This document shows positions 13,454-55,517 of a stretch of DNA of 64,000 bases, piece by piece. Source of the stretch: a virus (Duplodnaviria; Heunggongvirae; Uroviricota; Caudoviricetes); IMG/VR virus record IMGVR_UViG_3300031963_000058, positions 24,100-88,099 of that record; one strand, given 5' to 3'. Numbering within the stretch: position 1 is the stretch's first letter; each line of letters starts with the position of its first letter. Below the pieces are notes generated by a model. The model was not told the DNA's origin. It searched no databases and was given only the letters and a program-made list of their open reading frames with translations. The translations under genes were made by a program, and so were the position numbers.

Positions 13454-13729
13454 ACATATGAAATTTACAATTTTTACTGGGTTTTATAAGTAAAATAAAT
13501 GATAGAGAAGATGTTGACACTTTGGGAAATTATTTAGATAATTGTATACCAAAAAAACAACTTGTTATTAGTAGTGATCGTGAATTACAACCTGTTATAG
13601 AAGAAATGTTACAAAGTAAAAGATTTTCCTGGTTTTGGTTTATCTTGAATAAATATCATGTTGTTGTAAATTTTTCTTAAAAACTACTTGACTAATCTGA
13701 TAAATATTGATATTTATTGTTCGTTATAT

Positions 13730-13801
13730 TGCGGAGTGGAAAAAGGGTTACTTCATTAGGCTCATAACCTAAAGGTCCTGGTTCGAGTCCAGGCTCCGCC
13801 A
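13730..13801 (+). tRNA. tRNA with CAT anticodon (Met or Ile2/lysidine type)
   Basis: Cloverleaf folded by hand. Acceptor GCGGAG pairs with CTCCGC, and U8 is present. D-arm GAA/TTC with GGG in the loop. Anticodon stem TTAGG/CCTAA with loop CTCATAA (U33, CAT, A37). T-arm CCTGG-TTCGAGT-CCAGG. The anticodon stem is not the GGG/CCC initiator type. Confidence 0.6.
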
Positions 13802-14700
13802 CAAATTAGTTCTTTGATAGAAGATATTGGCCGTGTGTGGTCATTAAATAAACTGCGAAAGCAGGATAAAGTGGTTAGTATGCTAAAAACATACTACTGC
13901 GGCTTGTTACCGAGCTTGAGCACACAAGTGAGATATTATTATTCCTCAGTAGTTGAGGCCGACGGTGTAGGCGAAATGGAGTAATAATCCCGTAAATGTG
14001 GATTGCGGGGTTGAGGTCGGAAGACCAATAAGATTAACTCATAGGGTTCTTGCAAGAGATTAGGAATATCCAGTCTAATTATTGCGGTATCCAATGTAAT
14101 AGGTGTCTTAAAACCGAAAGGTAATGTAGTATTTCAGGTGGTGCTGGTATTACGCTCCTTACAGATTACCAGTCTGTATCGAAGAGATGTCTTGAAGCAT
14201 GATGATGGGGACATCATATCGAGTTGTAAAGTATTATTTAACTCAAAAGGTTAGATAGCTTTGACGGTAGACCGCAACTTGATTTTATCCACAACTTAAC
14301 TAAAAAAGTTCATTATTTATGTTTAGAATGAATAACTACTGAATAATTATAGCAAAAGTGTCTACCGGACGCTACGAAAAGAAATGCCTACATAGTCACG
14401 AGCAGTTCGTGGCATATAATGACCGCAAGTTGTTATGTATTCTTACAAAATATCTCTAGGCCCTCGAAAGCTTAGTCAGTCTTGCCGGATTGAAGAGAAT
14501 AGATTAGTAAGAGAGAGAGTAGCGTCAAGAATGTGTGACTCACATAAAAGTCGGCATTGGTTGCTACCATCCAAAAGATGTTAGTGGATATTAAGGGAAC
14601 CAATAATCCTTATAAAGGCAACTGTTAAAAAGTGTAATCTCAGCTTTTTATTTTTTATTACCTCATTTTAGAAAATTGCCATAAATTTGTGGCTTAGTTA
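13802..14700. ncRNA. ORF-free, GC-elevated ~0.9 kb segment; candidate structured non-coding RNA or degenerate region
   Basis: No ORF of 60 aa or more on either strand, despite gene-dense flanks. Composition is visibly GC-richer than the surroundings. It lies directly downstream of the tRNA. Confidence 0.3.
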
Positions 14701-14702
14701 TA

Positions 14703-15026
14703 ATGACCGGCACTCTGCTGGTCATTTCTTTTGTAACATTTAAAATTAAAAAAATGGATTTCAGAACTAAAGCACAATTATTGGTAATCTCCGGATTCAA
14801 AGTAGATGATTTTTATGTCGGAAAATCAGGCAAGATTTATGTTATAAATCGAGGTTCTAATTTCATTAACTTCTCAGATGGATCAAATATATTGATTTGT
14901 AAATCAAGGTTAGGATTTACTTTTCTAAAGGGTAATCGATTAGAAAGCACTTTATCAAATATTGAAGAATATTTGCGTAATTTAGAGTATTTATATAAAT
15001 ATGAGAAAGAGGCAATTGATATATGA
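14703..15026 (+). CDS. hypothetical protein (107 aa; alternative start MDFRTK at 14754)
   Basis: ORF. Confidence 0.4.
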   Translation: MTGTLLVISFVTFKIKKMDFRTKAQLLVISGFKVDDFYVGKSGKIYVINRGSNFINFSDGSNILICKSRLGFTFLKGNRLESTLSNIEEYLRNLEYLYKYEKEAIDI

Positions 15027-15938: not shown

Positions 15939-16547
15939 ATGAAAATAAAGATAATTGGAGATGCTCATGGTGAGCTGAGAAAATACAAAAAAGCAATCAA
16001 AGATTGTCACATGTCCATATGTGTTGGTGATTTTGGTTTTAAAAAAGAATGGACTTGGCATATCAAAAATATTGGACCTAATCATTGGATTAATCCTGGT
16101 AATCACGACTATATGCCTATGGCCGTAAAAGACGAATATCCGTCAACAGGCAATAGCAAATACTTTGAGGAATATTCAATTTTTACAGTTAGAGGTGCTG
16201 ATTCTATTGACAAACATCATAGGGTTGAAGGTAAAACTTTCTTCAGTAATGAAGAGATGAGTTACGCTGAAAGCCTACAAGTTGTTGATAACTATCTTAA
16301 AATTAAACCTAAAATAGTAGTATCTCATGATTGCCCACAAAGAATTATGAGTATGCTATTTGGTTATACGGATAAATCTACAACCAGGCAAGCACTACAA
16401 GCTATGCTTGATGATCATAAACCGGATTTTTGGATCTTCGGACATCATCATCATTCTTTGAATGAAATAATTGATGGTGTTAGATTTATCTGCCTCGATG
16501 AACTTGAACAATACATTTTTAACTTTAATGACATTAATAATGGATAA
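15939..16547 (+). CDS. calcineurin-like metallophosphoesterase
   Basis: Motifs GDAHG, VGDFG, GNHD and GHHH appear in the canonical order for this fold. Confidence 0.8.
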   Translation: MKIKIIGDAHGELRKYKKAIKDCHMSICVGDFGFKKEWTWHIKNIGPNHWINPGNHDYMPMAVKDEYPSTGNSKYFEEYSIFTVRGADSIDKHHRVEGKTFFSNEEMSYAESLQVVDNYLKIKPKIVVSHDCPQRIMSMLFGYTDKSTTRQALQAMLDDHKPDFWIFGHHHHSLNEIIDGVRFICLDELEQYIFNFNDINNG

Positions 16548-17334: not shown

Positions 17335-17694
17335 ATGAAAGTCAAATTATCAGTTTCGGAGTTAGTACTATTTCATTTAGTGCAAAGGTTTGTATACCAG
17401 TATCATACACTATTTTCAGTACATAAAACGCATGGGGCCTTAGAAGACCTAACCAAATTATGGTTTATAAAAATATTCGTCAATAACGATTATTTCCAGA
17501 ACATGCCAAATTCATATTTAGTTGATTATGAGATAGATCAGCTTAAAAATTTATTAATAGTGTTTAGAGGTGCTTTAACATACCATAGTTTTTATGTATC
17601 TTTAGACAAACCCATCAACTCGTGTGTAAAATACGCAAACAACGAGTTTTCGGAAGATGACATTAACATTTTTTCAATTGAATATTTACTATGA
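17335..17694 (+). CDS. hypothetical protein (119 aa)
   Basis: ORF. Confidence 0.45.
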   Translation: MKVKLSVSELVLFHLVQRFVYQYHTLFSVHKTHGALEDLTKLWFIKIFVNNDYFQNMPNSYLVDYEIDQLKNLLIVFRGALTYHSFYVSLDKPINSCVKYANNEFSEDDINIFSIEYLL

Positions 17695-18380
17695 ACAGAA
17701 AGATTACAGTAGAACTTATTGGCTACTATGGTAGCGATAAAACCCATGCTCAAAGTGCTTGGACATCCACAGACAGAGAAATCACAGATGAGAAACTTGA
17801 AAGGATGCCAGATCTATTGAAATATCTAGCAGAGCATAAACATGAAACACCTTTTGAGAAATCACTATTCCACTTTAATATAGAGGTGGAACAGGCCTCA
17901 CACATCCACACATTAAAGCACAGGATTGGCGTTTCGGTAAATGGTGAGTCTGCAAGATACAAAGAACTCACAGACAAATTTTACATTCCTGAAGATTGGG
18001 AGGGAGTTAAAATAAATGACATCAGTGATATTCCTTATTTGGATATGAATAAAGTTTCAGTTGAAACTTGGGCAGATATGCTTAGAGTTTATACTGAATT
18101 GGGGAACTTTTTATATCACAGATCCGCCAGTGAACTAACACCTGTATTGACAAGAAAAAGGGCAAAGGAAAGCTCTCGTTTCTTTAGGACAATGAACTCT
18201 ATGCTGACATTGGATACATCTTTTAACTGGAGATCATTTTATCATTTTTATATGCTTAGAGCCGATAAAACAGCTCAGCTTGAGATCCACATGGTTGCTG
18301 ATAAGATGCTTGAGTGCATTAAAAATATACCAGGAAATCCTTTTAAATACACATTATCCGCTCACGGGTTGGATAAATAA
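17691..18380 (+). CDS. thyX: FAD-dependent thymidylate synthase ThyX
   Basis: HKHETPFEKSLFHFNIEV, the ThyX signature KHRIGVSVNGESARY (RHRx7-8SxRY) and FNWRSFYHFYMLRADKTAQLEI align with conserved ThyX blocks. Length is 229 aa. Confidence 0.8.
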   Translation: MNRKITVELIGYYGSDKTHAQSAWTSTDREITDEKLERMPDLLKYLAEHKHETPFEKSLFHFNIEVEQASHIHTLKHRIGVSVNGESARYKELTDKFYIPEDWEGVKINDISDIPYLDMNKVSVETWADMLRVYTELGNFLYHRSASELTPVLTRKRAKESSRFFRTMNSMLTLDTSFNWRSFYHFYMLRADKTAQLEIHMVADKMLECIKNIPGNPFKYTLSAHGLDK

Positions 18381-19225: not shown

Positions 19226-20185
19226 ATGATTAAGTTAGTATCGGACTTCGAAATTAAATTATTTAGTTATTTAGATAAAAAATTAAAAAACAAGGATCTG
19301 TTTTCAGTGTCTAATGAAAATTATTTTGGAATGATATTATTCGTTCGCAAATATTTAAGATATTTCGGGATTTTGTACCCTAATTCTGACGACTATTATG
19401 GTATTAAATATTTGTGTTATAATATAATAGCAAAAAATAGAAATAAAAAATTAATTGATCTTGATTTTAAAGATTTGATTGGTCAAAAATTTAAAATTAG
19501 AAATCGCGAGTTACAAAATGCATTTATTCTAAATTTTTTAGAGTATGATTGTGTAGACGCTTCTACAATAAGCCGCTGGATTAATCAATCAGATACTGGG
19601 CTTAAATATGTATGTTATGAAAAAAGGTTTAGTGATGTGGTGCCTTTTTTTGCTTATGTAAATAATGAGAAATATAAGTTAAAATACAACACGGTAAATA
19701 CTTTTGGCCGTAATATAAAGTTACCGAAAGGAATAACTGACGAAACTCGTCATGTTACGTTATTTGAGTTAGAGACCGTTATTAATAGTAAAATTGACAA
19801 AGATAATTCATTTAAAAAAGCCATATACGATCAACTTGCTGTTGATTTTACTAAAGGGTTTAAGTTAGGGGATGATCAGCAAAACAGATATTATATTTCA
19901 GCCCCACCAGATGAAGATACGGATATTTACTTTAAATTTACTAGTATAAGAAATGAAAATGAAAAAATTATTTTTGATATAAAAATAATCAATATAATAG
20001 ATGCTGAAAACAACTCAAAAATTAACCCTAAGGATCTTAGCCTAGATGAAAAAATTGCTATTAAAAATAGGGTGCATGATAAGGTGTATTTTTTAATTCA
20101 ATTTGATAAACATGGGTATGATTTAAATACAAGTGTTTTTAGTGCGGATTCTATAGATTTGTCAGATATAAATATTAAATTCTAA
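19226..20185 (+). CDS. member 1 of the ~300-aa tandem paralogue family
   Basis: Shares the N-terminal helix pattern (SDFEIKLFSYLDKKL) and the central W..GLKYV...NG..YY motif with the next nine genes. Confidence 0.6.
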   Translation: MIKLVSDFEIKLFSYLDKKLKNKDLFSVSNENYFGMILFVRKYLRYFGILYPNSDDYYGIKYLCYNIIAKNRNKKLIDLDFKDLIGQKFKIRNRELQNAFILNFLEYDCVDASTISRWINQSDTGLKYVCYEKRFSDVVPFFAYVNNEKYKLKYNTVNTFGRNIKLPKGITDETRHVTLFELETVINSKIDKDNSFKKAIYDQLAVDFTKGFKLGDDQQNRYYISAPPDEDTDIYFKFTSIRNENEKIIFDIKIINIIDAENNSKINPKDLSLDEKIAIKNRVHDKVYFLIQFDKHGYDLNTSVFSADSIDLSDINIKF

Positions 20186-20196
20186 TCAATATTTTT

Positions 20197-21096
20197 ATGC
20201 CAGAATTTTTCACAAAAAGGGAAATAGTTGCATTTGAAAGCATAGATAAATACATTAGTGAAAATGTATTATCTAATATTGTCTTTCAAAATGACCAGCA
20301 GAAAGATATGCTTTCTATGTATAACAAATATCATGATGAGATAAAAAATGCTTTTTTAAAAAAAATACCTTTTTTTGGTTATCAAAGAGATAACTTTGGA
20401 TTTATGTTTTTTAAATATATTTTTAGCTCACATGTTTGTTATAAACATAATAAAAACCGTAAATCTTTAACTCAAGAAGATTTTATGGAAAGTCATATAC
20501 GTGGTCCTGGTTTTATGCATAATCAGTCAGCAGTTTCTGCTGCGATTTTTTTTAAAGTACCATTTACACTTAAATCTATAGGTAAATGGGTAAATTTTAA
20601 AGGACAAAAATATGTTGTAATTACTGATATAAATGGGAGCCGGATTATTTCTTGGATTTATTCTGGAGGTATTCTTTATAGGAATAAAATAGCTTTTCCT
20701 GACTGGCAAGAATTTGACACATCAAATCTTGGGCCAGACATCCGTTTAGTGAATGATCCTGAGATGTCGATTATATATGATAATCGTTCAGCAGATATCG
20801 AAAAAGCAGCAATAATTAGTATGGGTCGAAAAGCTAAAACATATATCGATTTATTATTGACAGCGAGAACTCTTTCTGAAAAAAATGTGGATTTAAAAAT
20901 TATTGGCGTATCTTTCTCTAAGAGGACATTTAAATTTAAGTTTAAAGTTATAGGCCAATATCTTACTAACAGTTTATATGAAGAACTAATAAACGGCGGA
21001 GCGATAAAAGTTGCTCTTATTAATTCTTACATAATAAGAATTTATCGTAATTTGATAGATATATCAAAATTAAATTTTATAATTGAAGTAGAGTAA
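20197..21096 (+). CDS. member 2 of the ~300-aa tandem paralogue family
   Basis: Contains GKWVNFKGQKYVVITDINGS. The antisense ORF 20527..20709 is rejected. Confidence 0.6.
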   Translation: MPEFFTKREIVAFESIDKYISENVLSNIVFQNDQQKDMLSMYNKYHDEIKNAFLKKIPFFGYQRDNFGFMFFKYIFSSHVCYKHNKNRKSLTQEDFMESHIRGPGFMHNQSAVSAAIFFKVPFTLKSIGKWVNFKGQKYVVITDINGSRIISWIYSGGILYRNKIAFPDWQEFDTSNLGPDIRLVNDPEMSIIYDNRSADIEKAAIISMGRKAKTYIDLLLTARTLSEKNVDLKIIGVSFSKRTFKFKFKVIGQYLTNSLYEELINGGAIKVALINSYIIRIYRNLIDISKLNFIIEVE

Positions 21097-21097
21097 T

Positions 21098-22027
21098 ATG
21101 AGTAGAGTTTTATCTAAATTTGATATAACACTTTTTAGTGCGGCTGATAGGTTAATTTATCAAAAATTTATGTTATATGCTCCATCTATGGCTGACGAAT
21201 TTATTGGTGATATGGCTAGTGCATATGTTAATAACATTGTGAATAGAGAATTTATTATGAAAACGTTTAAATCTGTTTTATCTAGATTGGGGGTATCTAC
21301 AGCAGGGATGATGTTTAATTATTATTTTGGTAGATACATACATTTTTCAACGATAAAAAATTTATTTGGTAAAAATTATTCAGAAATAGATATTAATGAT
21401 TTAATGAAACTGCCGCAACAAAAAACTGTAGTTTCATTTATTCCGGCTCTTTTAATTTCTAAAATTCCATTTAAAACAGCTCAAGGAGCTGTTGGAGCAT
21501 CCAAATGGATTAAGGATAAAGGCAATAATTATGTTTATTATAACAATTCTATCGAAGATCAGGCATCATTTGTATATTCAAATGGAGAATACTATTATTT
21601 TGCACCAAATATTCCTTTTGATAATATTGCAAAAAAATTTAACCTTATTTCTGTTGGACCAAGTTTAATAAATTATATTGCCGAAAATGACTATACTTTG
21701 GAACAAGTTAAAAAATTTGTTCATAAAAAAGTATATGAATATTTCCAGGTATACTTTGGGTCTATAACCGTTAATATAGCTGGCCATGTTTCTGAAAAAT
21801 TTTTAGTCAATGAAGTTAAAAAAACAAAAAATGGCTTTAATTTTAAAATTACTTCTGAGAAAAATTCAATAACTTCAGGATCTAAAGCTTATTTTGAGGA
21901 TGTAGTGAAAGATAGATTATTAAAATCTATAATGGGGGAGCCATATGAATATGCTCTTGATATTCCGAATAAATATGAAATAAACGTAGAAATTAAAATA
22001 TATGGAAAATCTAATAACAAAAAGTGA
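21098..22027 (+). CDS. member 3 of the ~300-aa tandem paralogue family
   Basis: Contains SKWIKDKGNNYVYYNNS...SNGEYYYF. Confidence 0.6.
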   Translation: MSRVLSKFDITLFSAADRLIYQKFMLYAPSMADEFIGDMASAYVNNIVNREFIMKTFKSVLSRLGVSTAGMMFNYYFGRYIHFSTIKNLFGKNYSEIDINDLMKLPQQKTVVSFIPALLISKIPFKTAQGAVGASKWIKDKGNNYVYYNNSIEDQASFVYSNGEYYYFAPNIPFDNIAKKFNLISVGPSLINYIAENDYTLEQVKKFVHKKVYEYFQVYFGSITVNIAGHVSEKFLVNEVKKTKNGFNFKITSEKNSITSGSKAYFEDVVKDRLLKSIMGEPYEYALDIPNKYEINVEIKIYGKSNNKK

Positions 22028-22090
22028 AACCGCACTATATGAGTATCTTGATAAGTATATACATAAACATTTAAAAATTAAAAGCGGGTT

Positions 22091-23035
22091 GTGGAAAGAT
22101 TATTAAATAATAGAGATGTTATTTCTTATGGTATAATTAATAAATATATTAATCATATTTATCGCAAATATTTTGGTGATAGCCCGCCGGAGAAGTATAT
22201 AAATCCTAGTTTCCTCACAAAAATATATGATGATTATATTTATTTACCTGATTTTAGTCAATTTTCATTTAAAGAACTTATGAAGTTATTAAATAAATTG
22301 GGTTATTATAATGTTAATCCACGACGAGAGATTGTCAAATATCTTTTGTATTCAGAGATTGCTGCAAGAAATAATAAACCGGTTAAAGATCTAACAATGT
22401 CAGATGTAATTAATTTTACACCTATCCTTGTATCAAGGCCTGATTTTTTACCGGCAATATCGTTATTGGTGCCAAGCAGATCAAAATCATTTATCTCAAA
22501 TTGGGTTGAAGTTAATGGCTTAAAATATGTTGTTAAAAAAAATCAAAATTTAGCTCTAGTTTATACTAATGGGGTATATTATTATAATGATAACGTATTT
22601 AATCATTCAAGTCCCCCATATATTGGGACATATTTACCAAATAAAGAAAAATCGACTGCTCGTGAATTAAATATAATTATGAATCATGATTTTAGCCATG
22701 AAGAGTTAGTTGATTATCTTACAAAATTAAATTTTAAAAAATTAAAAAAATTTTTGACAGAGCAACTGAAATTTGATGCTAATTTTAAAGATGAAGGGTT
22801 GGTTTTGGATGATTTTAAAATATTAGATAAAATATTAATCGTTGATCTTAAAACACCACTTAACCGTGATATTTCTAATTTATCGGAAAAAAGTATACAT
22901 AAACTTGGAGACGGCATTGCAACTTTTATTCATATGTCATATAATAACATAGGTAACTTATCTAACTTTTCATACTCTAGGGTTCGGTTAAACATAAACG
23001 GTATTAATGTTTATAATTATGGGCATAGTATTTAA
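22091..23035 (+). CDS. member 4 of the ~300-aa tandem paralogue family (GTG start)
   Basis: Contains SNWVEVNGLKYVVKKN...YTNGVYYYND. The GTG start is supported by alignment with the N-termini of the paralogues. Confidence 0.6.
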   Translation: MERLLNNRDVISYGIINKYINHIYRKYFGDSPPEKYINPSFLTKIYDDYIYLPDFSQFSFKELMKLLNKLGYYNVNPRREIVKYLLYSEIAARNNKPVKDLTMSDVINFTPILVSRPDFLPAISLLVPSRSKSFISNWVEVNGLKYVVKKNQNLALVYTNGVYYYNDNVFNHSSPPYIGTYLPNKEKSTARELNIIMNHDFSHEELVDYLTKLNFKKLKKFLTEQLKFDANFKDEGLVLDDFKILDKILIVDLKTPLNRDISNLSEKSIHKLGDGIATFIHMSYNNIGNLSNFSYSRVRLNINGINVYNYGHSI

Positions 23036-23921
23036 TAGTCGTGAAATATTTTTTTTAAAAAAAGTTGAAGAGTCATTATATGAAGCTGCGAAGACTTTTC
23101 AGTATTATAATCCAGTTAGAAAACTGAAAATTAGTTTCGATTTATATCGATATATTTACCTATCAGCAGGTTTTGCTCAAAAATCGGAAGAAATTTTCAT
23201 TAAAAAAGCTAAATTTTTTGGAATACAAGGTGATTTAACCGTTTTATATGTCAAATATATACTTTGCTCAGAAATAGCGGCAAAGTTAGATAAGCACATA
23301 AATTATTTGACACAAAAGGATATTATAAATGCGAAAGATATCTTAGTAAAAGATAACGAGTGGGCGACAGCAGCAATTGCTAATTTGATACCTTTCACTG
23401 GGGATGATATGAAAGCTGTTTGGGTTAACAAGAATGGTCTTAAGTATAAAGTTTATAGTTCAGGACTTTGGTTTATATATACAAATGGGGAGTTCTACTA
23501 TAATTATGATACATATAATTTCACTATCCCAAGTATTTTTAGTGATTTTGCTAGACCTTGTTCAATCCGTGATCTTGAAGTTATAGAAACCTATGATTTA
23601 GATTATAGTGGTTATATAGATAAAATAAAGAAATTAAGTATAAAAGAATTGAAACGTATGTATGAAGTACATGAAGATGGAAAATATATAAAATATCTTG
23701 CAGAAACTCAGTCCAAGCTAATTAAAATTGATTACTCCGGAAAAGAAAATATAAATTTTTATTTTAAATCAAAAATAAAAACAGATGAATTATTAAATAA
23801 TGTGGCTAAAACGCTTCTTCATGTAATGAATAATTTACAACGTAGTGCTTTCATCTTTCATAGCCGTTTGTTAGATTCTGGCGAAACTAGTATATACATA
23901 AATGGTAAAAAATATATATAA
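23019..23921 (+). CDS. member 5 of the ~300-aa tandem paralogue family
   Basis: Contains AVWVNKNGLKYKVYSS...YTNGEFYYNYD. The start was chosen at MGIVFNSREIFFL by paralogue alignment; the ORF extends to 23007. Confidence 0.55.
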   Translation: MGIVFNSREIFFLKKVEESLYEAAKTFQYYNPVRKLKISFDLYRYIYLSAGFAQKSEEIFIKKAKFFGIQGDLTVLYVKYILCSEIAAKLDKHINYLTQKDIINAKDILVKDNEWATAAIANLIPFTGDDMKAVWVNKNGLKYKVYSSGLWFIYTNGEFYYNYDTYNFTIPSIFSDFARPCSIRDLEVIETYDLDYSGYIDKIKKLSIKELKRMYEVHEDGKYIKYLAETQSKLIKIDYSGKENINFYFKSKIKTDELLNNVAKTLLHVMNNLQRSAFIFHSRLLDSGETSIYINGKKYI

Positions 23922-24859
23922 TGGCCAAATATTTTAGTAATTTCGAAGTAAGAGCTTTTGATTTAATTGATAAATCACTACGTGCTTATATTAAAAAATT
24001 TCTTTCGGAAAGAAGACTTAAACCGTATGATATCCCCCCAGGAATTTTTGATATATTTTTTTACACTACGAAAGATATTCTGTCTTTAAATTATAATATT
24101 AGGGTGGTTTTTTACAAGCAAAGTAAGTTTCTTGGGTTAAAACCGAATAGTAATTATGAAACTTATTACTTTTATAAGTATCTTATTGCTACACAGATAG
24201 CATATAAGCTGGGTAAAAGTAGAAGTGAATTGACGTTTACTGATATCTCGAATTCGGAACAAATTATAATCAATGAAGGTTTCATGGATAATATTTGTTT
24301 GTATTATTTATTTCCTTTTCGCTCTACACGTGGTCATTATGATTCATCTGGACTCTGGGATAAATCTAAAGGGTTAAAATATTTATACTACTATAGTAGA
24401 ACTAATCTTGTATCTATATTTTCTAACGGGGTACAATACGTAAACGAATTTTATACCTCATCAGAGGTTTCTCCAGAATTTAGCAAAAAATACGTTAGTG
24501 CGAATGCATACGATTTGAAAGTTATTGAAAAACTTGATTTAGATTATGATGGAGTGCGCAATAAGCTTCTTGAGCTTGAAGCTAAACGAGTTGAAAGATT
24601 GTACAAAAAGATTATTAAGATACGCAGGTTTGCTTTGATATTCGAAAACTATCCTTTTAATGTTAGGTTATCTAAAATAGTTTTTAATAAAAAAGATTTA
24701 AAGTTTCACTTTACAACTGATCCGATTGACGATGAGGTTAAAACTAATTTAAGGCATGAACTATTGCCATTGGTTTTTGAGGTTTATTATAAATATAGCC
24801 CAAAAAGTAAAGTATTAAATTTGGGAACTTTAGTTTTTTCTCTACTACTCAATGAGTAG
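23921..24859 (+). CDS. member 6 of the ~300-aa tandem paralogue family
   Basis: Contains GLWDKSKGLKYLYYYS...FSNGVQYVNE. Confidence 0.6.
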   Translation: MAKYFSNFEVRAFDLIDKSLRAYIKKFLSERRLKPYDIPPGIFDIFFYTTKDILSLNYNIRVVFYKQSKFLGLKPNSNYETYYFYKYLIATQIAYKLGKSRSELTFTDISNSEQIIINEGFMDNICLYYLFPFRSTRGHYDSSGLWDKSKGLKYLYYYSRTNLVSIFSNGVQYVNEFYTSSEVSPEFSKKYVSANAYDLKVIEKLDLDYDGVRNKLLELEAKRVERLYKKIIKIRRFALIFENYPFNVRLSKIVFNKKDLKFHFTTDPIDDEVKTNLRHELLPLVFEVYYKYSPKSKVLNLGTLVFSLLLNE

Positions 24860-24887
24860 ATATTTATAAATATAGTATTAAAAAATT

Positions 24888-25829
24888 ATGTTAGAAGGAT
24901 TAACCAAGCAAGATATTGTTATATTTAACACCATAGACAAACAGATAGGTCTTACTTTAGGTGGTCCTAAATTATATGATCTTATATCTGGAGATGAGTT
25001 GCATGATCATATATCTCGTATATTAAAATATTTTGGTATACCAAATAAGTTTAATAGCGCGTCACGTAAGTGTTACATAGTATATTTTGCTTTAACAGTT
25101 TTATCCCAGATACGCAAAAAAAAGATATCTAAATTAACAATAGATGATATTATTAATGCGGAGATATATAATATAGACGCTGATAATGAAATGACAGCTC
25201 AACTAATAAAATTTAAAATTAAGTTTTTAAGTGAAAAATATAAATCGAATTGGGTTGACGAGGGAAATGGGTATAAATATATTATTCGGGATACTGATAC
25301 TAATGACATCGTTTATCTTTATAATGGCGTAAAACATTATGGGTACTATGGTTTAGTTAACACAAGTATTTTTATAGAACTTAAATCTTTATTTATTATA
25401 CCTGTTAGCCATTCAGATATGGCTGCAATTAGCAAACTACCTAATTTAAATTATGAGTCTATTTTGGGTTTAGTAAAAACTAAATTTATAGATTGTATTA
25501 AAAAATTTCTATACACTGAACTTAAAAATTTTGAGCATTATTATTTCATTGATGGTGAAACTATATTATTAGATTTAACACTAGAAAAAGTTCGTTTAAA
25601 AGATCTGAATATTACACTGCACGTATCCGTAGATAAGAATAAGGTTAGACGTGAGGTAAACAAAAATACTGTTGATTTAGAAGATATCTTTTTAAAAATA
25701 AAAAAAGATAAAAATTTTGAAAATAAGATTACTGAATATTTTCTAACCCAAATTAAACTAAACGCAGATTGTGATAGTAGATTATGGAGTACATATAAAT
25801 TTAATTTTAAGACGGTTATTGATGTATGA
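24888..25829 (+). CDS. member 7 of the ~300-aa tandem paralogue family
   Basis: Contains SNWVDEGNGYKYIIRD...LYNGVKHYGYY. Confidence 0.6.
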   Translation: MLEGLTKQDIVIFNTIDKQIGLTLGGPKLYDLISGDELHDHISRILKYFGIPNKFNSASRKCYIVYFALTVLSQIRKKKISKLTIDDIINAEIYNIDADNEMTAQLIKFKIKFLSEKYKSNWVDEGNGYKYIIRDTDTNDIVYLYNGVKHYGYYGLVNTSIFIELKSLFIIPVSHSDMAAISKLPNLNYESILGLVKTKFIDCIKKFLYTELKNFEHYYFIDGETILLDLTLEKVRLKDLNITLHVSVDKNKVRREVNKNTVDLEDIFLKIKKDKNFENKITEYFLTQIKLNADCDSRLWSTYKFNFKTVIDV

Positions 25830-26749
25830 AAATAATGCTTACAATTTCTCCATTAGAGAAAGCTCTTAGAGTATTGATTGAAAGAGAACTTAAAATATAC
25901 CTAGAAGATTTTAACCAAAACATAATGTCTGATAGTTTTAGTTTAGGCGTTGTTATTCATAGGATGACCAGACGTCTTGAAAAACTAAAAATGCCTAGCT
26001 ATAAATTTCAGTCTTTTACGATTAATATGGCGGTTTCTCGTTATATCTATTTAAAATTACTATCACAAAAATTAAATAAACCTGTAAACGAAATAACAGA
26101 GTCTGACGTTTATAATGCAAAGCCAATACAAATTCCCACATTTTATGCTGAGGAAATGTTTGGAATTATCCGGGGGGGATTTCCTTTTACAGCAAAAAAA
26201 ATATGGATTTTTAAATCTCCATCTAATAAAAGTATTGTCGGTTCTTGGGATATAAAATCAAAAAGATATGTAGCTAGAACTTCAGATAATATTTTACTTG
26301 GTATTATTCTTGAAAATGGTATTTTTTATTACGATGAAGAATTATTTGATGTAGTTATCTGGCTTAATGGTATAGTTCCTTGTAAACAAGAGGATCTTAG
26401 GGTTATATTAAACACAAAAAATCGGGATATAATTGGGGCAATTAGTGAAAACCTTACGGAGTCTTTCTGTGATAATGCTAAGGATCATTTTGGTGTTACG
26501 GGTTTTTATCGTGAGTGGGATTTTTTTTATTCCGCGAATGCAACATTTGAAGTAGATTCAAGGGCTAAAAAAATGACAGTAAACATAAATATAGTTAGTG
26601 CTCCAGATGATTATGATGATCAGCTTATAGATAATATTAAGAGTACCTGGTGGCATGGTATTTATAAACAATATTCTGACTATGTTTATAGTAAATCAAA
26701 ATTAAGTGAGTTATATAATTTAAATATTAACTTAAATTTTAATACGTAG
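25826..26749 (+). CDS. member 8 of the ~300-aa tandem paralogue family
   Basis: Contains GSWDIKSKRYVARTSD...LENGIFYYDEE. Confidence 0.6.
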   Translation: MKIMLTISPLEKALRVLIERELKIYLEDFNQNIMSDSFSLGVVIHRMTRRLEKLKMPSYKFQSFTINMAVSRYIYLKLLSQKLNKPVNEITESDVYNAKPIQIPTFYAEEMFGIIRGGFPFTAKKIWIFKSPSNKSIVGSWDIKSKRYVARTSDNILLGIILENGIFYYDEELFDVVIWLNGIVPCKQEDLRVILNTKNRDIIGAISENLTESFCDNAKDHFGVTGFYREWDFFYSANATFEVDSRAKKMTVNINIVSAPDDYDDQLIDNIKSTWWHGIYKQYSDYVYSKSKLSELYNLNINLNFNT

Positions 26750-26770
26750 TAAAAATTATTAAATAAAAAT

Positions 26771-27667
26771 ATGGAACCAAAGATATTCAGTTTTGAACCT
26801 AATTTATATAGAACATTTAATAAATTTATGGGGTATGATCCAAAAAAAATGATGTTTAAATATGCCCCAGGATATGCTAGTTTTATTAGTGGAGGTAAAT
26901 TATATACCAGATTTGTAAAATTAATGGAGACTTTAAATGTTGAAGATAGTACAGGGTATCCTACCAAATTGTTTTATATGCGATACTATTATTTAACTTT
27001 ATTATCCGAAAAATTGAATAAAAGCCTAAGTCAGATTACCGTTGATGATATAATAAATAATGTCCTTAACATTAATGTTGGTTATTCGGTAATAGGAGAA
27101 CTGGTTGCATTTGGGTTTCCTATTATGTCTGATAATTTTCATTCCAAATGGGAGCATAGAAAAAATGGGTTTAAATATGTTGGTAGAAATCCTACGGGGA
27201 TGATAAATTTAGTTTCATTTAATAACATGGTTTTTCATGAAAATGATCTTTTTACTAAATACTATAATATATATGATGTAATGAATAATAAACAGTGTAT
27301 TATTGCAAAATGCAAAAAGAATGATCTTAATATAGTTTTAAACCAAAGTTCGGATGCTGACTTCGATTATATTGTAGCTGTTATATTAAGAACAATCACT
27401 GATGACTTTAAAACTTACATAAAAAGTGATGATGCACGTTTAGTTCATATTAAATTAAAAGACGTTTTTAGTATTATTTTAGATAATGTTGTTGTAAATC
27501 ATGAAGATAGAACAGTAAATTTTTATTGCCGTAAAATAAATAAATTTATGGATAAAATTAGCTTATATTCTGGTCAACAATATCTTGATCGCCAATACAA
27601 AGAATTCCTTATAAAGAAAACTGAGTTTTTGAATTACAATTATCGATGCGCAGTCAATTATATATAA
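26771..27667 (+). CDS. member 9 of the ~300-aa tandem paralogue family
   Basis: Contains SKWEHRKNGFKYVGRN...SFNNMVFHEND. Confidence 0.6.
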   Translation: MEPKIFSFEPNLYRTFNKFMGYDPKKMMFKYAPGYASFISGGKLYTRFVKLMETLNVEDSTGYPTKLFYMRYYYLTLLSEKLNKSLSQITVDDIINNVLNINVGYSVIGELVAFGFPIMSDNFHSKWEHRKNGFKYVGRNPTGMINLVSFNNMVFHENDLFTKYYNIYDVMNNKQCIIAKCKKNDLNIVLNQSSDADFDYIVAVILRTITDDFKTYIKSDDARLVHIKLKDVFSIILDNVVVNHEDRTVNFYCRKINKFMDKISLYSGQQYLDRQYKEFLIKKTEFLNYNYRCAVNYI

Positions 27668-27683
27668 AAACCACAACAAACTA

Positions 27684-28610
27684 ATGAAGCCTAAAATTTC
27701 TGATTTAGAATTTAAAGTATATTCTCTAATAGAAAAGAGATTCTCTGAATTAAGCTCAGAAGAATTTTCTTTAGCTATGATTGACATGAGTAGTTATCCT
27801 TATAGAACTTTTATAAAGTTAGTTGAGACATTTTCTTTGGATAAGATATTTGATTTACCTCCATTTATTTTCACGCTCAGATATCGTTATTTAACAGAAT
27901 TATCCAGAGTGAAAGGTATTCCTCGTTCAAAAATAACAGAAAAAGATATTTTTGGGTCTAAATTAGTTTTTCCTGTAAGTACTAATGAATCTTTATTATT
28001 AGGTTTGTGTGGATTTCCATTTATTTCGGGAATTGTAGTTGGTGAGTGGTATAAAGGTAGGGATAAAAAATACGTATGCCGTGAAATTGGGGGGGAAATA
28101 AATTATATTGCCTACAATAATGTTAATATTATTCAAAATATTAACAAATATCATAGTGATCCTAATATTATGTCGAAATCTTTTTATGGTAAACAATTAA
28201 AACATATTATCAGACAGGCAACTACATTTGATTTAGAATTTGCGTTAAAACAAAGAACAACAGAAATATATGTGATAATACATAATTTAACTATGTATTT
28301 TTTTGAACAATTTAAAAAACATGTTATGAGCAAGAAGTTTATTGATGTTTCAAGTAATAGAAATCTAACTAAATATATTGTGATAACAGATATGGTAGTT
28401 AAAAATTCAGAAATAAATGTTAAATATAACCTATTAACAAATAGGCCGGAAATATTTAATTATGAATATTTTAAGAAAACTAAAAATGAGTTAGTTGAAC
28501 ATATATATATGACCTTAGTTTTAATGTATATTACAGTAGCAACCAATTCTAATCTTCATAATAGATATAGTCTAGTTGTTGGGAAACCTGAATTAATTGA
28601 GCAGTTATGA
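27684..28610 (+). CDS. member 10 of the ~300-aa tandem paralogue family
   Basis: Contains GEWYKGRDKKYVCREIGGEINYIAYNN. Confidence 0.6.
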   Translation: MKPKISDLEFKVYSLIEKRFSELSSEEFSLAMIDMSSYPYRTFIKLVETFSLDKIFDLPPFIFTLRYRYLTELSRVKGIPRSKITEKDIFGSKLVFPVSTNESLLLGLCGFPFISGIVVGEWYKGRDKKYVCREIGGEINYIAYNNVNIIQNINKYHSDPNIMSKSFYGKQLKHIIRQATTFDLEFALKQRTTEIYVIIHNLTMYFFEQFKKHVMSKKFIDVSSNRNLTKYIVITDMVVKNSEINVKYNLLTNRPEIFNYEYFKKTKNELVEHIYMTLVLMYITVATNSNLHNRYSLVVGKPELIEQL

Positions 28611-28656
28611 TTTACAAACCATCATTTATTTATTATTTTTGATCTAAATAAATAAA

Positions 28657-29481
28657 ATGAAACAAACAAAAACATATCACGAACTAGTCTCTAAAATGAG
28701 ATCTTTCTTTTTATCTAAAGGATGGATTGAGGTACCTACTCAGTCCAGATTATCAATACTCGCTGCGTGCGAAAATCCCCACTCTGTGGCGACTTTTGAA
28801 TACGATGGAGTAGTATGGCCTCTACCACAAACGGGTCAAATGTGGCTTGAATATGAGCTTCTGAAGAACCCTGATTGGCCAGGTGTGTTTTGCGTCTCCA
28901 CATCATACCGTAATGAGAAAAACCCGATCCCTGGAAGACATGAGAAAATTTTCCCTATGTTTGAATTTGAGTCAAAGGGGGGATTTGCTGAGCTTAAAAA
29001 ATTGGAGGCTGAACTTCTAGATTATCTAGGATTTTCTAGCCCGGTTAGTAGAAACTATGACGATATGTGTGATGAATACGGAGGGGTTCCTATTTTAGAG
29101 GATGAGCACGAATCTAGGATGTGGAAAGAACTTGGTAATGTTATATCTTTAGAGAAATTTCCATACAGGACATCTCCATTTTGGAATATGAAACATGCTG
29201 GAAATGATCTATTTAATAAGATAGATATTATCCTTTATGGGCAGGAAACAATTGGATCTGCGGAAAGATCTTGTGACGTTAATTATATGAGGCAAATGTT
29301 CTATAACATAATGGATGGGGCATATGCCAATAAACTTTTTGAATTATTTGGTAGAGAACGAGTTGAGAAAGAATTGGAAGAATTTCTTAGTTTAAATTTC
29401 TTTGAGCGATTTGGTGGAGGTATTGGTTTAACAAGGTTAGCTAGGGCTTACGAAATGCTTAAGGAATCTAGCCAAGTTTAA
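28657..29481 (+). CDS. AsnA-like / class II aminoacyl-tRNA-synthetase catalytic-core-like protein (Asp/Asn subfamily) lacking an anticodon-binding domain
   Basis: Motif 2-like SYRNEKNP...RHEKIFPMFEFE (fRnE...RH.xEFTMxE) and motif 3-like FGGGIGLTRLA (GGGIGxxRL, as in AsnA/AsnRS). At 274 aa it is too short for a full AsnRS. Confidence 0.55.
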   Translation: MKQTKTYHELVSKMRSFFLSKGWIEVPTQSRLSILAACENPHSVATFEYDGVVWPLPQTGQMWLEYELLKNPDWPGVFCVSTSYRNEKNPIPGRHEKIFPMFEFESKGGFAELKKLEAELLDYLGFSSPVSRNYDDMCDEYGGVPILEDEHESRMWKELGNVISLEKFPYRTSPFWNMKHAGNDLFNKIDIILYGQETIGSAERSCDVNYMRQMFYNIMDGAYANKLFELFGRERVEKELEEFLSLNFFERFGGGIGLTRLARAYEMLKESSQV

Positions 29482-50788: not shown

Positions 50789-50919
50789 TAGTCAGGTGGC
50801 GGAATTGGTAACGCCCCGGTCTAAATCCGAAAAAGAGTAGTAGCTCTATGATGGATGAAAACCGGGTCAGCTTGTAGAGCTACACATACATGGTTGCAGG
50901 TTCGAGTCCTGCCCTGACT
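50789..50919 (+). tRNA. tRNA-like gene (131 nt) with a Leu-type D-arm and a large insertion in the anticodon/variable region
   Basis: A perfect 7-bp acceptor AGTCAGG pairs with CCTGACT; U8 is present. D-arm GCG-GAATTGGTAA-CGC. T-arm GCAGG-TTCGAGT-CCTGC. The stem CCCGGT...ACCGGG encloses about 40 nt that include TCTAAAT, with possible anticodon TAA (Leu), or CTA in the GTCTAAA register. Confidence 0.4.
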
Positions 50920-50940
50920 GATTACTTAAAACTTATTCTT

Positions 50941-51227: not shown

Positions 51228-51533
51228 TTACTTTGGTGTATGAAGTTTATATGTAACCTCTTTAATAGTATTTATATGAATTTCAAATTTATTCTCAATC
51301 CAGGAACTAAAAATCATTTCAAAGTCTTCTTTTGATACTGGGACTATCTTAGTAAGATCATCTCTGAATCTTTTATAGTAATACACAACACCGGTCCAGT
51401 GAATGCGGACGATAGAGGCACGATCATCTTTATTGTAAAGCTCTATATTATTTTTGTTTTCAATGACAATCAGCTTGTCAAACCTGGAATAGAACCAGTT
51501 CATGGTTCTACGATATGATTTATGGTTGTCCAT
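51228..51533 (-). CDS. ~100-aa tandem array family, subfamily A, copy 1
   Basis: Has the family pattern Y..I..W.Y..FDKL.V...........IVRIH..G.VYYY..F...L.KI.P....DFE....W.E.KF.I. Confidence 0.55.
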   Translation of the reverse strand: MDNHKSYRRTMNWFYSRFDKLIVIENKNNIELYNKDDRASIVRIHWTGVVYYYKRFRDDLTKIVPVSKEDFEMIFSSWIENKFEIHINTIKEVTYKLHTPK

Positions 51534-51572
51534 AATAATTAATTTGTTAGTTTAATTTTAAAAATTTTTTGA

Positions 51573-51872
51573 CTATTGTGATATTGAACTTGCGTGTATC
51601 TTAATTACTTTTATTTTAAATTTATCTTCGATCCAGGATGTTAAAAACAGTTCGAAGTCGTTGATACTTATTGGTATAATTTTAACTAGATCAAGCATAA
51701 AATCTTCATAATAAAAGATTTCACCTTCATTGTTTATCAAATATACTCGTATAACAGAATCTTCTTCTATATCAAAAAGATTTATTTTTTCATTGGTAGT
51801 ATAAAACGTCAGCATATCAAACTTGTGATAAAACCATTTCCTGATTTTAATATATGATTTTTCATTCTTCAT
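51573..51872 (-). CDS. ~100-aa tandem array family, subfamily A, copy 2
   Basis: Contains KWFYHKFDML...IRVYLINNEGEIFYYEDF...DFELFLTSWIEDKFKIKV. Confidence 0.6.
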   Translation of the reverse strand: MKNEKSYIKIRKWFYHKFDMLTFYTTNEKINLFDIEEDSVIRVYLINNEGEIFYYEDFMLDLVKIIPISINDFELFLTSWIEDKFKIKVIKIHASSISQ

Positions 51873-51885
51873 GATCCTGTGTTTC

Positions 51886-52170
51886 TTAGATTTTGACGTG
51901 CATTTTAGTTAGTTTTATTTTGAATTTATCTTCGATCCATTCTCTCAGAAACATTTCAAAATCTGCATTTTTAATAGGGATAACACTAACCAGATCATAC
52001 CTGAAGAATACGAAATAAAATGCTTCTTTTTCCGATTTATATATACGGACCACAGAAAACTCATGCTTATCCCTAAGCACTATTTTTTCAGTGTCCTCAG
52101 ATTCTTTCAACTTATCAAATTGGTTATAAAACCATCTCCTGGTTTTAAGATATAACTTATTTTCGCTCAT
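51886..52170 (-). CDS. ~100-aa tandem array family, subfamily A, copy 3
   Basis: Contains RWFYNQFDKL...VVRIYKSEKEAFYFVFF...DFEMFLREWIEDKFKIKL. Confidence 0.6.
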   Translation of the reverse strand: MSENKLYLKTRRWFYNQFDKLKESEDTEKIVLRDKHEFSVVRIYKSEKEAFYFVFFRYDLVSVIPIKNADFEMFLREWIEDKFKIKLTKMHVKI

Positions 52171-52196
52171 ATAACATATACTTTGATTGGGCCATA

Positions 52197-52496
52197 TTAG
52201 TTATAATCACTTTCACGTACATCATCGATTTTTAGGCCGAATTTCTCTTCGATCCATTTTACCAAGAACAATTCAAAATCCGATGTTTCTAATGGTATTA
52301 TTTTAGTTAAATAATATCTGAATCCGGCATAATAATATACCAAAATCTCATCATCATATATATAAATCCGAACAAATTTCGATTTATTATCTTTACTACT
52401 GAGGATTATACGATTTTCATCTGCGGTCACAATCAACTGATCAAATTTCATGTAAAACCATCTTATGACTTTAATATATAACTTATTTTCGCTCAT
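52197..52496 (-). CDS. ~100-aa tandem array family, subfamily A, copy 4
   Basis: Contains RWFYMKFDQLIV...SSKDNKSKFVRIYIYDDEILVYYY...DFELFLVKWIEEKFGLKI. It is preceded by the 26-nt junction ATAACATATACTTTGATTGGGCCATA, identical to the one at 52497. Confidence 0.6.
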   Translation of the reverse strand: MSENKLYIKVIRWFYMKFDQLIVTADENRIILSSKDNKSKFVRIYIYDDEILVYYYAGFRYYLTKIIPLETSDFELFLVKWIEEKFGLKIDDVRESDYN

Positions 52497-52522
52497 ATAA
52501 CATATACTTTGATTGGGCCATA

Positions 52523-52822
52523 TTACTTATAATCACTTTCATATACATAATCGATTTTTAGGCCGAATTTATCTTCGATCCATTCTTTCAAGAAAAATTC
52601 AAAGTCCAATCTTTCTAATGGTATTATTTTAGTTAACTGATATTTGAATCTAATATAATAATATACCAAAATCTCATCATCATATATATAAATCCGAACA
52701 AATTTCGATTTATTATCTTTACTACTGAGATTTATATTATCTTCATCTACAGTCACAATCAACTGATCAAATTTCTTGTAAAACCATCTCCTGGTTTTAA
52801 GATATAATAGTTCTTTACTCAT
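52523..52822 (-). CDS. ~100-aa tandem array family, subfamily A, copy 5
   Basis: The 24-aa block SSKDNKSKFVRIYIYDDEILVYYY is identical to copy 4, while the flanks differ, so the copies are mosaic. Confidence 0.6.
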   Translation of the reverse strand: MSKELLYLKTRRWFYKKFDQLIVTVDEDNINLSSKDNKSKFVRIYIYDDEILVYYYIRFKYQLTKIIPLERLDFEFFLKEWIEDKFGLKIDYVYESDYK

Positions 52823-52831
52823 AATACTATT

Positions 52832-53131
52832 TTAATAAACCGATTCATTGAATGGCCGGATAATTCGCACATTTATATTGAATTTATTTTCAACCCAATT
52901 GGCTAAAATAGTGTCAAAGTCGGATTGTGATATCGGGAACAGTTTAAACAACTTGTGCATATAATTTACATCGTAAAATACTTCACCATAATTTAGATAA
53001 ATTCGAATATCGCATTTAAAATCAATATATGTGTGAAGATGTAAAACTTTGCGTTCAGTGACAATTGTCAACTTTTCAAACTGATTATAAAACCATCTCC
53101 CGGCTTTAACATAAAATTTTAGTTTACTCAT
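52832..53131 (-). CDS. ~100-aa tandem array family, subfamily A, copy 6
   Basis: Contains RWFYNQFEKL...IRIYLNYGEVFYDVNY...DFDTILANWVENKFNINV. Confidence 0.55.
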   Translation of the reverse strand: MSKLKFYVKAGRWFYNQFEKLTIVTERKVLHLHTYIDFKCDIRIYLNYGEVFYDVNYMHKLFKLFPISQSDFDTILANWVENKFNINVRIIRPFNESVY

Positions 53132-53173
53132 ATTGGCAAATGTTTTTAAGATTCAATAGCCTGAAATATATCT

Positions 53174-53479
53174 TCAAAGTAAAGCATTTAAATACCAACT
53201 GTAGCTGTTGACTTTTTTAACTTTAATTCCGAATTTATGTTCGACCCACATAATTAAAAGTATTTCAAAATCAACGTTTGGTACCGGAAATTTTTGAATG
53301 ACTTTTTTCTTGAAATCTGTCATATAATAAACAATGCCGAACTTTTTATATATTCTAATTACAGAATATTCGTCGTCGTAAGGGCTAAGGTCTATTTTAT
53401 CCTCATCTTCTCTCACGAACAACACATCAAATTTCTTATAAAGAACCCTTCTTGCCGCTAGATATAATTTATCATCCAT
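53174..53479 (-). CDS. ~100-aa tandem array family, subfamily A, copy 7
   Basis: Contains RRVLYKKFDVL...VIRIYKKFGIVYYMTDF...DFEILLIMWVEHKFGIKV. Confidence 0.55.
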   Translation of the reverse strand: MDDKLYLAARRVLYKKFDVLFVREDEDKIDLSPYDDEYSVIRIYKKFGIVYYMTDFKKKVIQKFPVPNVDFEILLIMWVEHKFGIKVKKVNSYSWYLNALL

Positions 53480-53516
53480 AATAATCTTTTATCTTAATAA
53501 ATATAACATCTTCATA

Positions 53517-53813
53517 TTATGGCCGGAATCTCATTCTATATATGTTATTTATTTTAACTTTAAATTTTTCGTCAATCCATTGACATAAAAGCAATTCGAA
53601 GTCTTCTATTTGCATGGGGAATACATTAATGATCCTTTGCATGTAATCTTCGTAATAAAAAACCCTTTCAAGCTCTTTATAAATGTGAATAGTAATGCGA
53701 GGATCGTCGTCATGGCGAAGTTCTACAACATGATCAGATTCCCATACACCCAGGTTATTAAACTTCCTGTAGGTCCATTTTTGAGCCACACGGTATAATT
53801 TATCTTTGAGCAT
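53517..53813 (-). CDS. ~100-aa tandem array family, subfamily A, copy 8
   Basis: Contains KWTYRKFNNL...ITIHIYKELERVFYYEDY...DFELLLCQWIDEKFKVKI. The antisense ORF 53610..53798 is rejected. Confidence 0.55.
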   Translation of the reverse strand: MLKDKLYRVAQKWTYRKFNNLGVWESDHVVELRHDDDPRITIHIYKELERVFYYEDYMQRIINVFPMQIEDFELLLCQWIDEKFKVKINNIYRMRFRP

Positions 53814-54159
53814 AAATCATATAACTAACTTGGGGGTTAACTATTAACAAGTCAAAAGCTATGACTTCAGTTACTTTAATATCAAATTTATATTGTACCC
53901 ATTTTTTTAGCAGTAATTCGAAATCTTCGATTTGCATGGGGAATAACTTAATTATTTTTTTCATGTAATCTACGTTATAACATACACAACCATCACTTTT
54001 GTAAATTCGAATAATAGTCTTATTGTTGAGACAAGAACACAGAGTAATGCAAGATGGCTCATTGTCTTGTTCTTTCACCAGAGTATCGAACTTATTATTA
54101 ATCCATTTTCCGGCTATGTTATATAGCTTTTCTTTATCCATGATTGTACATGCTAGCAC
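53800..54159 (-). CDS. ~100-aa tandem array family, subfamily A, copy 9
   Basis: Contains KWINNKFDTL...IIRIYKSDGCVCYNVDY...DFELLLKKWVQYKFDIKV. The likely start is the internal MDKEKLY at about 54141. Confidence 0.55.
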   Translation of the reverse strand: MLACTIMDKEKLYNIAGKWINNKFDTLVKEQDNEPSCITLCSCLNNKTIIRIYKSDGCVCYNVDYMKKIIKLFPMQIEDFELLLKKWVQYKFDIKVTEVIAFDLLIVNPQVSYMIYAQR

Positions 54160-54451: not shown

Positions 54452-54528
54452 AGGTACAGGATAAAATTAACAAATTCAAATAATTAAAAATAAATTGGGG
54501 GAGCTAAAATGGGGGGGATATGTACAAA

Positions 54529-54822: not shown

Positions 54823-54827
54823 GCCAT

Positions 54828-55154: not shown

Positions 55155-55180
55155 ATTTAAAGATTTATAGTTTACCTTTA

Positions 55181-55495: not shown

Positions 55496-55517
55496 ATTTA
55501 AATATTTATACTGTTAA

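Follow-up and report, generated by a model that had tools for sequence, protein, structure and literature searches.

The 64,000-nt stretch of phage DNA analysed here (the window) very probably encodes, at positions 13828-14646 of the plus strand, a full-length GOLLD RNA of approximately 820 nt with the two-domain architecture of env-38, an assignment drawn from comparison with known members of the family. GOLLD itself is already known, and the locus adds a member of the env-38 type. GOLLD RNAs are among the largest non-coding RNAs of bacteria and phages and are now known as RNA-only nanocages; both the cage and the association of the RNA with phages and tRNAs have been described (PMC12286853, PMC12990946). 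The present locus is a clean and compact example, in which a tRNA, a 26-nt spacer and a GOLLD of 819 nt follow one another in a phage that appears to have been sampled repeatedly, and the architecture shared with the solved env-38 makes it usable as a test case. Two further features, a putative boxA of rRNA type that is conserved in the clade and a preferred initiator-like tRNA(CAT) neighbour, offer testable handles on how GOLLD is made and on what it may act on, respectively. They are modestly interesting by-products and leave the GOLLD classification unaffected.

Identification of the GOLLD RNA

A preliminary description of this DNA had singled out the segment directly after a tRNA(CAT) ending at 13801 as a GC-enriched gap without ORFs of 60 aa or more on either strand, set in gene-packed surroundings, and these observations were borne out. 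The longest ORFs on the two strands of 13802-14702 are of 56 aa (13814-13984, +), 51 aa (13939-14094, -) and 49 aa (14435-14584, +), the first listed ORF of at least 60 aa past the gap begins at 14703 (with an alternative in-frame ATG at 14754), and ORFs densely fill the remainder of the window. GC content, measured over 300-nt intervals, is 0.433 and 0.423 at 13750-14199 and 0.34-0.39 on to 14650, against about 0.22-0.33 in the flanks (0.25-0.30 immediately upstream and 0.22-0.29 downstream), and the tRNA is called at the same place by ARAGORN and by Rfam (Table 1). When 13827-14646 was folded as a single RNA the energy was -225.9 kcal/mol, compared with -196.9 +/- 7.6 kcal/mol for 20 dinucleotide shuffles of the same sequence, none of which folded as well (z = -3.8).

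The earlier suggestion of a large structured RNA, possibly a phage-encoded non-coding RNA, was confirmed when all of the window was scanned against Rfam 15. The GOLLD family, RF02032, matches 14219-14646 (+) with 231.5 bits (E 2e-64), which is 81 bits above the gathering score of 150 bits; the match is untruncated, spanning positions 1-416 of the 416 in the model, and is the one strong non-tRNA match in the window. The AT-rich linker within this 3′ domain holds no embedded tRNA according to ARAGORN. Because the RF02032 model is restricted to the 3′ half, the part of GOLLD that is universally conserved, the 416 nt that separate tRNA and Rfam match needed explaining. These are largely accounted for by the 5′ domain described below, the first element of which is a local hairpin, P1, at 13828; the structured RNA therefore extends over 13828-14646, a total of 819 nt.

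The 5′ domain

A distant blastn search of a phage collection matched window positions 13840-14146, at 70% identity, to LR745206.1, an uncultured phage of 634.8 kb, whose locus comprises a tRNA-Met followed by an Rfam GOLLD match of 287 bits and can be aligned to the window from one end of the unit to the other. Relatives of this GOLLD were also located on IMG/VR viral contigs, where scanning with a 3′-domain motif gave at least 118 loci, an earlier scan with a 5′-domain motif having given three only. In approximately 110 loci among the matches listed, window 13815-14150 has a counterpart of 65-70% identity in the sequence that precedes the 3′ domain. More than 100 GOLLD loci on viral contigs, and env-38 as well, carry a 5′ domain homologous to the 5′ half of this RNA (13828-14218).

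Comparative alignment revealed abundant compensatory changes in this half of the RNA, which lies outside the Rfam model. The alignment comprised 52 non-redundant 5′ domains (less than 97% identity), namely that of the window and 51 others, the near-identical contigs (99.6-100%) being too similar for covariation testing. RNAalifold predicted 92 pairs, 76 of which show at least one compensatory double change. By explicit count, standard pairs occupy 95.5% of cells, as against 78.4% when partners were shuffled and approximately 39% when partners were slid by 1-3 columns, and the covariation score is 0.553, as against 0.228 (shuffled) and about 0.10 (slid). The opening hairpin P1 itself covaries (GC30, CG11, TA4, TG6). 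An outermost 'helix 1' proposed by RNAalifold (13829-13831/14226-14228) was rejected, having no double changes and overlapping P14 of the Rfam model.

Table 1. Features of the GOLLD locus, in window coordinates.
Feature	Position	Strand	Basis or remark
Alternative promoter TTGACA-17-GATAAT	13514-13542		Consensus scan, 11/12 matches; weak call
Candidate promoter TTGACT-17-TATTTA(TTG)	13688-13716	+	Read by eye, low confidence; ends ~14 nt before tRNA
tRNA(CAT), initiator-like	13730-13801	+	ARAGORN; Rfam tRNA, 54.8 bits (end 13801/13802)
boxA-like element GTTCTTTGATAG	13809-13820	+	In 26-nt tRNA-GOLLD spacer; core GTTCTTTGA
GOLLD 5′ domain ('cap' of env-38 cage)	13828-14218	+	Homology, RNAalifold, pair counts
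Hairpin P1	13828-13832 with 13839-13843	+	Local hairpin opening 5′ domain; loop pairs with 13920-13925
GAAA loop	13857-13860	+	B1 donor, conserved
G13957/C13963	13957, 13963	+	B2, conserved
GGAA loop	14019-14022	+	B3 donor, conserved
GGA with UCC	14209-14211 with 14069-14071	+	B4; 3 bp in window, 5 bp in env-38
UGGU with A14168, C14170, A14171	14139-14142 with 14168, 14170, 14171	+	B5, conserved
GOLLD 3′ domain ('ring' of cage)	14219-14646	+	Rfam RF02032
Variable AT-rich linker J13/15	14283-14350	+	Unpaired, low-posterior in Rfam alignment; counterpart of the disordered env-38 linker
UCAAAAG loop		+	B6 donor, conserved
GC (J13/15) with GC (loop L20, neighbouring chain)	14352-14353 with 14425-14426	+	B7, mapped from env-38
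UCGAA in L21a		+	CG variant of B8 palindrome
GC in L21b		+	B9, conserved
AA	14573-14574	+	B10 donor, conserved
Terminator-like hairpin, 11 bp then TCTTTTG	14702-14726	+	Consensus scan

Inter-chain contacts and the predicted cage

The env-38 GOLLD (833 nt; JCVI_SCAF_1096627009515/1239-410) was solved by cryo-EM as a D7 14-mer cage (PDB 9MEE), in which the cap is built from the 5′ domain (1-420) and the ring from the 3′ domain (421-833), residues 497-538 are a disordered linker directed into the cage interior and ten inter-chain bridges hold the chains together (Kretsch et al. 2025, PMC12286853). The GOLLD alignment in the supplement of that study takes in the 3′ domain only (PMC12286853). Other GOLLDs can differ in oligomer number, and the Streptococcus agalactiae GOLLD, which is without P9, P11a-c and P21b, forms other oligomers (PMC12990946).

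Along its full length, 13827-14646, the window RNA aligns with env-38, the sequence compared being an imperfect supplement text of 816 of the 833 nt in which anchors gave non-monotonic offsets. The env-38 contacts were placed on the window by local context and, for the A-minor bridges B1, B3 and B10, by their donors only (Table 1). In bridge B7, the env-38 pairs G546:C618 and A547:U617 map to G14352:C14426 and C14353:G14425, the second of which is compensatory and is distributed in the family (53 sequences) as CG31, GC20 and AT1. The same J13/15-L20 long-range or kissing contact was reportedly found through covariation in the original description of GOLLD. The self-complementary dinucleotide of L21a is known to switch between GC and CG (PMC12286853). 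Moreover, the window has L11a, L21a and L21b, the elements which set the env-38 tetradecamer apart from the Streptococcus GOLLD (PMC12990946).

Since the contact elements that could be placed are conserved or have co-varied, a similar nanocage is likely for the window RNA. Copies of the RNA would self-assemble, protein-free, into a D7 14-mer as env-38 does, although the figure of 14 is a prediction here because oligomer number varies between GOLLDs. It has been proposed that the cage serves in lytic growth to enclose or sequester cargo such as tRNAs or ribosomes, and the expression of other GOLLDs climbs during the lytic growth of their phages (PMC12286853).

Alternative identities of the segment

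An ORF-free segment in a gene-dense window might be a pseudogenised or frameshifted protein-coding gene, as the preliminary description had recognised. For practical purposes this reading is refuted, and its residual probability is negligible: five short ORFs of the gap (38-56 aa) gave no match in a Pfam search (E<=0.1), substitutions among the homologues track base-pairing rather than codon structure, and the 3′ domain matches an RNA covariance model over its full length. By its size and GC enrichment the segment might also be an RNA of another large structured class, such as a group I or group II intron, RNase P, tmRNA or ROOL, or else a replication origin, and a tRNA neighbour is sometimes found for introns and tmRNA. 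Nevertheless, a permissive Rfam scan of 13600-14900 produced nothing else below E 0.02, and all other matches were far under their gathering scores; ARAGORN finds no tmRNA; and the whole length aligns with env-38. Any identity of this kind is thus exceedingly improbable, and the degenerate intron and the replication origin that had been entertained earlier are unsupported. The sub-threshold matches of the permissive scan, apart from that to the sRNA Hrs12, had E>2 and were taken as chance. Hrs12 itself, at 14650-14732 (29 bits as against a required 70, E 0.024), was likewise set aside as probably a chance match to a hairpin plus U-run; it lies on the plus strand and overlaps both a promoter-like site at 14676-14704 and the hairpin at 14702-14726.

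A different question is whether the locus is a GOLLD in decay, no longer functional. The window forms 84 of the 92 consensus 5′-domain pairs (91%, the family median being 97%), so that eight are non-standard. In addition, three near-identical contigs (L249, L250 and L252; 2.2-2.9 kb each around the locus), those that diverge within the tRNA-GOLLD stretch, show between them five differences from the window, at 13837, 13938, 13964, 13980 and 13982, all of which fall within 146 nt of the 5′ domain without preserving the predicted pairs, and the flanking genes of the same contigs show zero differences. Such clustering could mean that the 'cap' is variable at this spot, or could be noise from assembly or between strains. 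Several of the eight missed pairs are, however, alignment-register effects in hairpins of differing length, one of which is longer in the window. The 3′ domain is untruncated and scores far over threshold, every conserved loop or kissing contact that could be placed is intact, and the locus has been kept across many independent samples, all of which makes a relic very unlikely and favours an intact GOLLD.

The tRNA(CAT) neighbour and the transcription unit

Bacterial initiator tRNAs are marked by the lack of a Watson-Crick pair at 1:72, by A11:U24 and by three G:C pairs at 29-31:39-41. The window tRNA has a U1·C72 mismatch (position 1:72 is flagged as non-standard in the Rfam alignment), a D stem of GAAA/CUUC which gives A11:U24, and an anticodon stem with G30:C40 and G31:C39 but A29:U41. 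On these features it looks like the bacterial initiator type; as only two of the three G:C pairs are present, it is termed 'initiator-like' and not a proven initiator. Mismatches at 1:72 recur among the GOLLD-linked tRNA(CAT) genes in the matches listed (15 of 20 distinct sequences), often as the classical C·A and otherwise as U·U, A·A, C·U or G·A, in addition to the U·C of the window. Of 117 related loci among the matches listed, 30 have a tRNA(CAT) beginning no more than 60 nt past the 3′ end of GOLLD, usually at approximately 20 nt, and most of these downstream tRNAs carry the initiator-type 1:72 mismatch. An immediately preceding tRNA is less common (10 of 91 related loci among the matches listed, three being CAT), and the window, with 26 nt from tRNA to P1, has the tightest upstream layout among the loci compared. 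In a few related IMG/VR loci (in the range L005-L122) the place after the GOLLD 3′ end is taken instead by odd tRNA-like calls, with 'anticodons' of two or four bases.

The tRNA and GOLLD would be co-transcribed, with 3′ processing of the tRNA releasing the 5′ end of GOLLD. Of the two promoter candidates (Table 1), the one closer to the tRNA is missing from the promoter-scan list because the last base of its second hexamer is A; related loci have TTGACA...TAnnTTTG upstream of their GOLLD. At the other end, a U-rich run (14647-14660) directly follows P27, and the hairpin at 14702-14726 would probably end the transcription unit if this run fails to stop the polymerase.

The boxA-like motif in the spacer

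The boxA element has the form GCUCUUUAACAA in E. coli and GUUCUUUGAAAA in Bacillus, and the GTTCTTTGA element upstream of 23S rRNA in rrn operons is taken here to be boxA, the NusB/NusE site of the rrn antitermination complex. The core of the element in the tRNA-GOLLD spacer is the same 9-mer. When 185,579 genomes were scanned for GTTCTTTGA followed at 75-105 nt by GGTGGATGCCTTGGC, a conserved sequence of the 23S 5′ region, the identical 9-mer was found at that distance in at least 120 bacterial contigs, some chance co-occurrence being expected in a scan of this size. Among the matches listed are Bacillaceae (including three operons of B. spizizenii), Flavobacteriales, Bacteroidales, Chitinophagaceae, Acidobacteriota, Nitrospirota, Streptomyces and others. 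The flanks of the motif are also alike, reading 'tGTTCTTTGAcAA.T.gata' in rrn, 'GTTCTTTGAAAACTAGATAA' in the Bacillus type and 'acGTTCTTTGAAA.atta.att' in GOLLD, and the rrn and GOLLD motifs share the flank form GTTCTTTGAAAA(A/C)T(T)AGAT.

In right-aligned upstream regions of the 52 non-redundant GOLLDs, GTTCTTT(G/A)A occurs within 160 nt upstream in 47, always on the GOLLD strand and at 19-122 nt before P1; the background in the same loci is 0.011 per 160 nt, an enrichment of approximately 80-fold. The window contains GTTCTTTGA twice, the other copy (38979-38987, -) lying in an ORF-covered region; it is probably there by chance, as at least two copies were seen in 19 of 100 shuffles of the window. 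In many related loci the motif comes after a promoter-like TAnnTTTG and a small hairpin, TAnnTTTG being the -7 promoter type of Bacteroidota. In this layout (many loci in the range L007-L112, 60-120 nt before P1) TAnnTTTG is succeeded by AAAACAAA, the small hairpin (TCGGAAAnGTCCGA) and then GTTCTTTGAAA. The arrangement suggests Bacteroidota hosts and a boxB-like hairpin preceding the boxA-like motif.

From the identity with the rrn 9-mer, the similar flanks and the conserved upstream position, we infer that GTTCTTTGA of the spacer is a putative boxA antitermination site and that this GOLLD clade uses Nus-factor antitermination. The motif would recruit host NusB/NusE, so that the polymerase could read through a long structured untranslated RNA without Rho termination, and this recruitment might possibly aid the folding of GOLLD. 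It is quite conceivable, if not the favoured reading, that the conserved 9-mer instead signals processing by a nuclease, belongs to a promoter or is bound by a phage protein. The case for boxA is built on sequence and position, the distance from motif to GOLLD is variable, and no boxA-like motif was found upstream of GOLLD in three phages of other hosts, namely phiCbK, Vibrio phage PG07 and mycobacteriophage PegLeg. Furthermore, an incomplete literature search produced no relevant publication on the motif or on a link between GOLLD and boxA or antitermination, and neither a GOLLD-Nus nor a GOLLD-initiator-tRNA link was found in the literature searched. The 9-mer is, however, identical to the element found 75-105 nt ahead of 23S in many bacteria, with similar flanks, and the position downstream of a promoter-like sequence and hairpin in many loci implies that the motif would be transcribed; its orientation along the GOLLD strand is without exception. 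These points argue for the Nus-factor boxA.

A broader and more speculative reading, which is offered as doubtful, is that a clade of freshwater phages has set up GOLLD as a miniature 'rRNA-style' operon, with a host-type boxA bringing in the Nus complex for antitermination and RNA chaperoning, so that the cage RNA is made and folded, and with the GOLLD gene physically linked, on its upstream or downstream side, to an initiator-type tRNA of the phage. If true, the cage might handle initiator tRNA or take over translation initiation.

Phage context and other features of the window

The window looks like the genome of an uncultivated phage that has been sampled repeatedly in public metagenome assemblies. 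No match was obtained when window 1-25000 was compared by megablast with 50,697 phage records, which indicates that the source phage is absent from deposited isolates. Two window proteins were found identical on many public contigs, among them some from JGI metagenome samples and some of 0.2-1 Mb. The stretch from tRNA to GOLLD is 99.6-100% identical in seven independent contigs and is therefore no assembly artefact. Near the locus are genes for a metallophosphoesterase (15939-16547, matching PHROG 1649) and ThyX (17691-18380, matching PHROG 85); the eight other proteins that were scanned gave nothing above curated threshold, with weak WD40-repeat matches in one.

Elsewhere in the window, eleven consecutive genes of approximately 275-320 aa at 19226-29481 (+) are distant paralogues, with 12-19% identity to the first and with Y, D and W positions that never vary; a scan of the first copy alone gave no Pfam or PHROG match. 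A head-to-tail array of approximately 40 small paralogous genes (94-119 aa) occupies 51228-63820 (-), in which a sample of 14 showed 23-43% identity to the first and invariant Y, F, L, D, F and W, and no Pfam family scored above threshold. A tRNA-like gene at 50790-50920 (+; Rfam tRNA, 42.5 bits) has an anticodon loop enlarged by approximately 33 nt and a variable arm of approximately 26 nt; standard ARAGORN missed it, and with the intron option the program called it, unconvincingly, as a tRNA-Val(AAC) containing a 38-nt intron.

Comparison with known systems

Env-38 is similar to the window RNA in length (approximately 820-830 nt), in the equivalent place of the domain split and in having an AT-rich internal linker, and it likewise adjoins a tRNA-Met. 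The conserved loops GAAA, GGAA, L11a GAAA, UCAAAAG and L27 GUAAUCUCAG are present in both RNAs, as are L21a and L21b with an identical set of kissing contacts. Sequence identity is well under 70%, as judged on the related-locus comparisons. In B7 the window has G:C and C:G where env-38 has G:C and A:U, L21a carries CG in the window and GC in env-38, the L11a stem is shorter in the window, and the linker is of 68 nt in the window compared with 42 nt (497-538) in env-38.

Among other relatives, LR745206.1 (634,780 bp) has the same order of tRNA-Met(CAT), GTTCTTTGA and GOLLD, a 5′ domain 70% identical to that of the window and a tRNA which shares the 1:72 mismatch and A11:U24. It differs in having approximately 110 nt, including two extra hairpins, between tRNA and P1, where the window has 26 nt, and an additional insertion of approximately 40 nt in the 5′ domain. 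The phage context and tRNA neighbourhood of the RF02032 members from Lactobacillales prophages, Caulobacter phage phiCbK, Vibrio and mycobacteriophages are also found here, whereas the 5′ domains of those members are different or reduced relative to that of the window and, in the three of these phages that were checked (phiCbK, PG07 and PegLeg), the upstream GTTCTTTGA is absent. ROOL, an ornate phage-borne RNA forming an 8-mer cage, occupies a similar niche near tRNAs with a similar type of assembly (PMC12286853), but its sequence and fold are unrelated to those of the window RNA and there is no Rfam ROOL match in the window.

The boxA of rRNA operons provides the remaining comparison. Many Bacillota and Bacteroidota have the same core 9-mer, GTTCTTTGA, ahead of 23S; the core is followed by GATAG in the window but by GAAAA or GACAA in rrn and in most GOLLD copies. 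Unlike the rRNA-operon element, the motif here is phage-borne, precedes a non-ribosomal RNA and is a putative boxA. The order seen here, in which a tRNA and a boxA-like motif precede a long, structured and untranslated RNA, mirrors that of the 16S-tRNA-boxA-23S spacer in rRNA operons.
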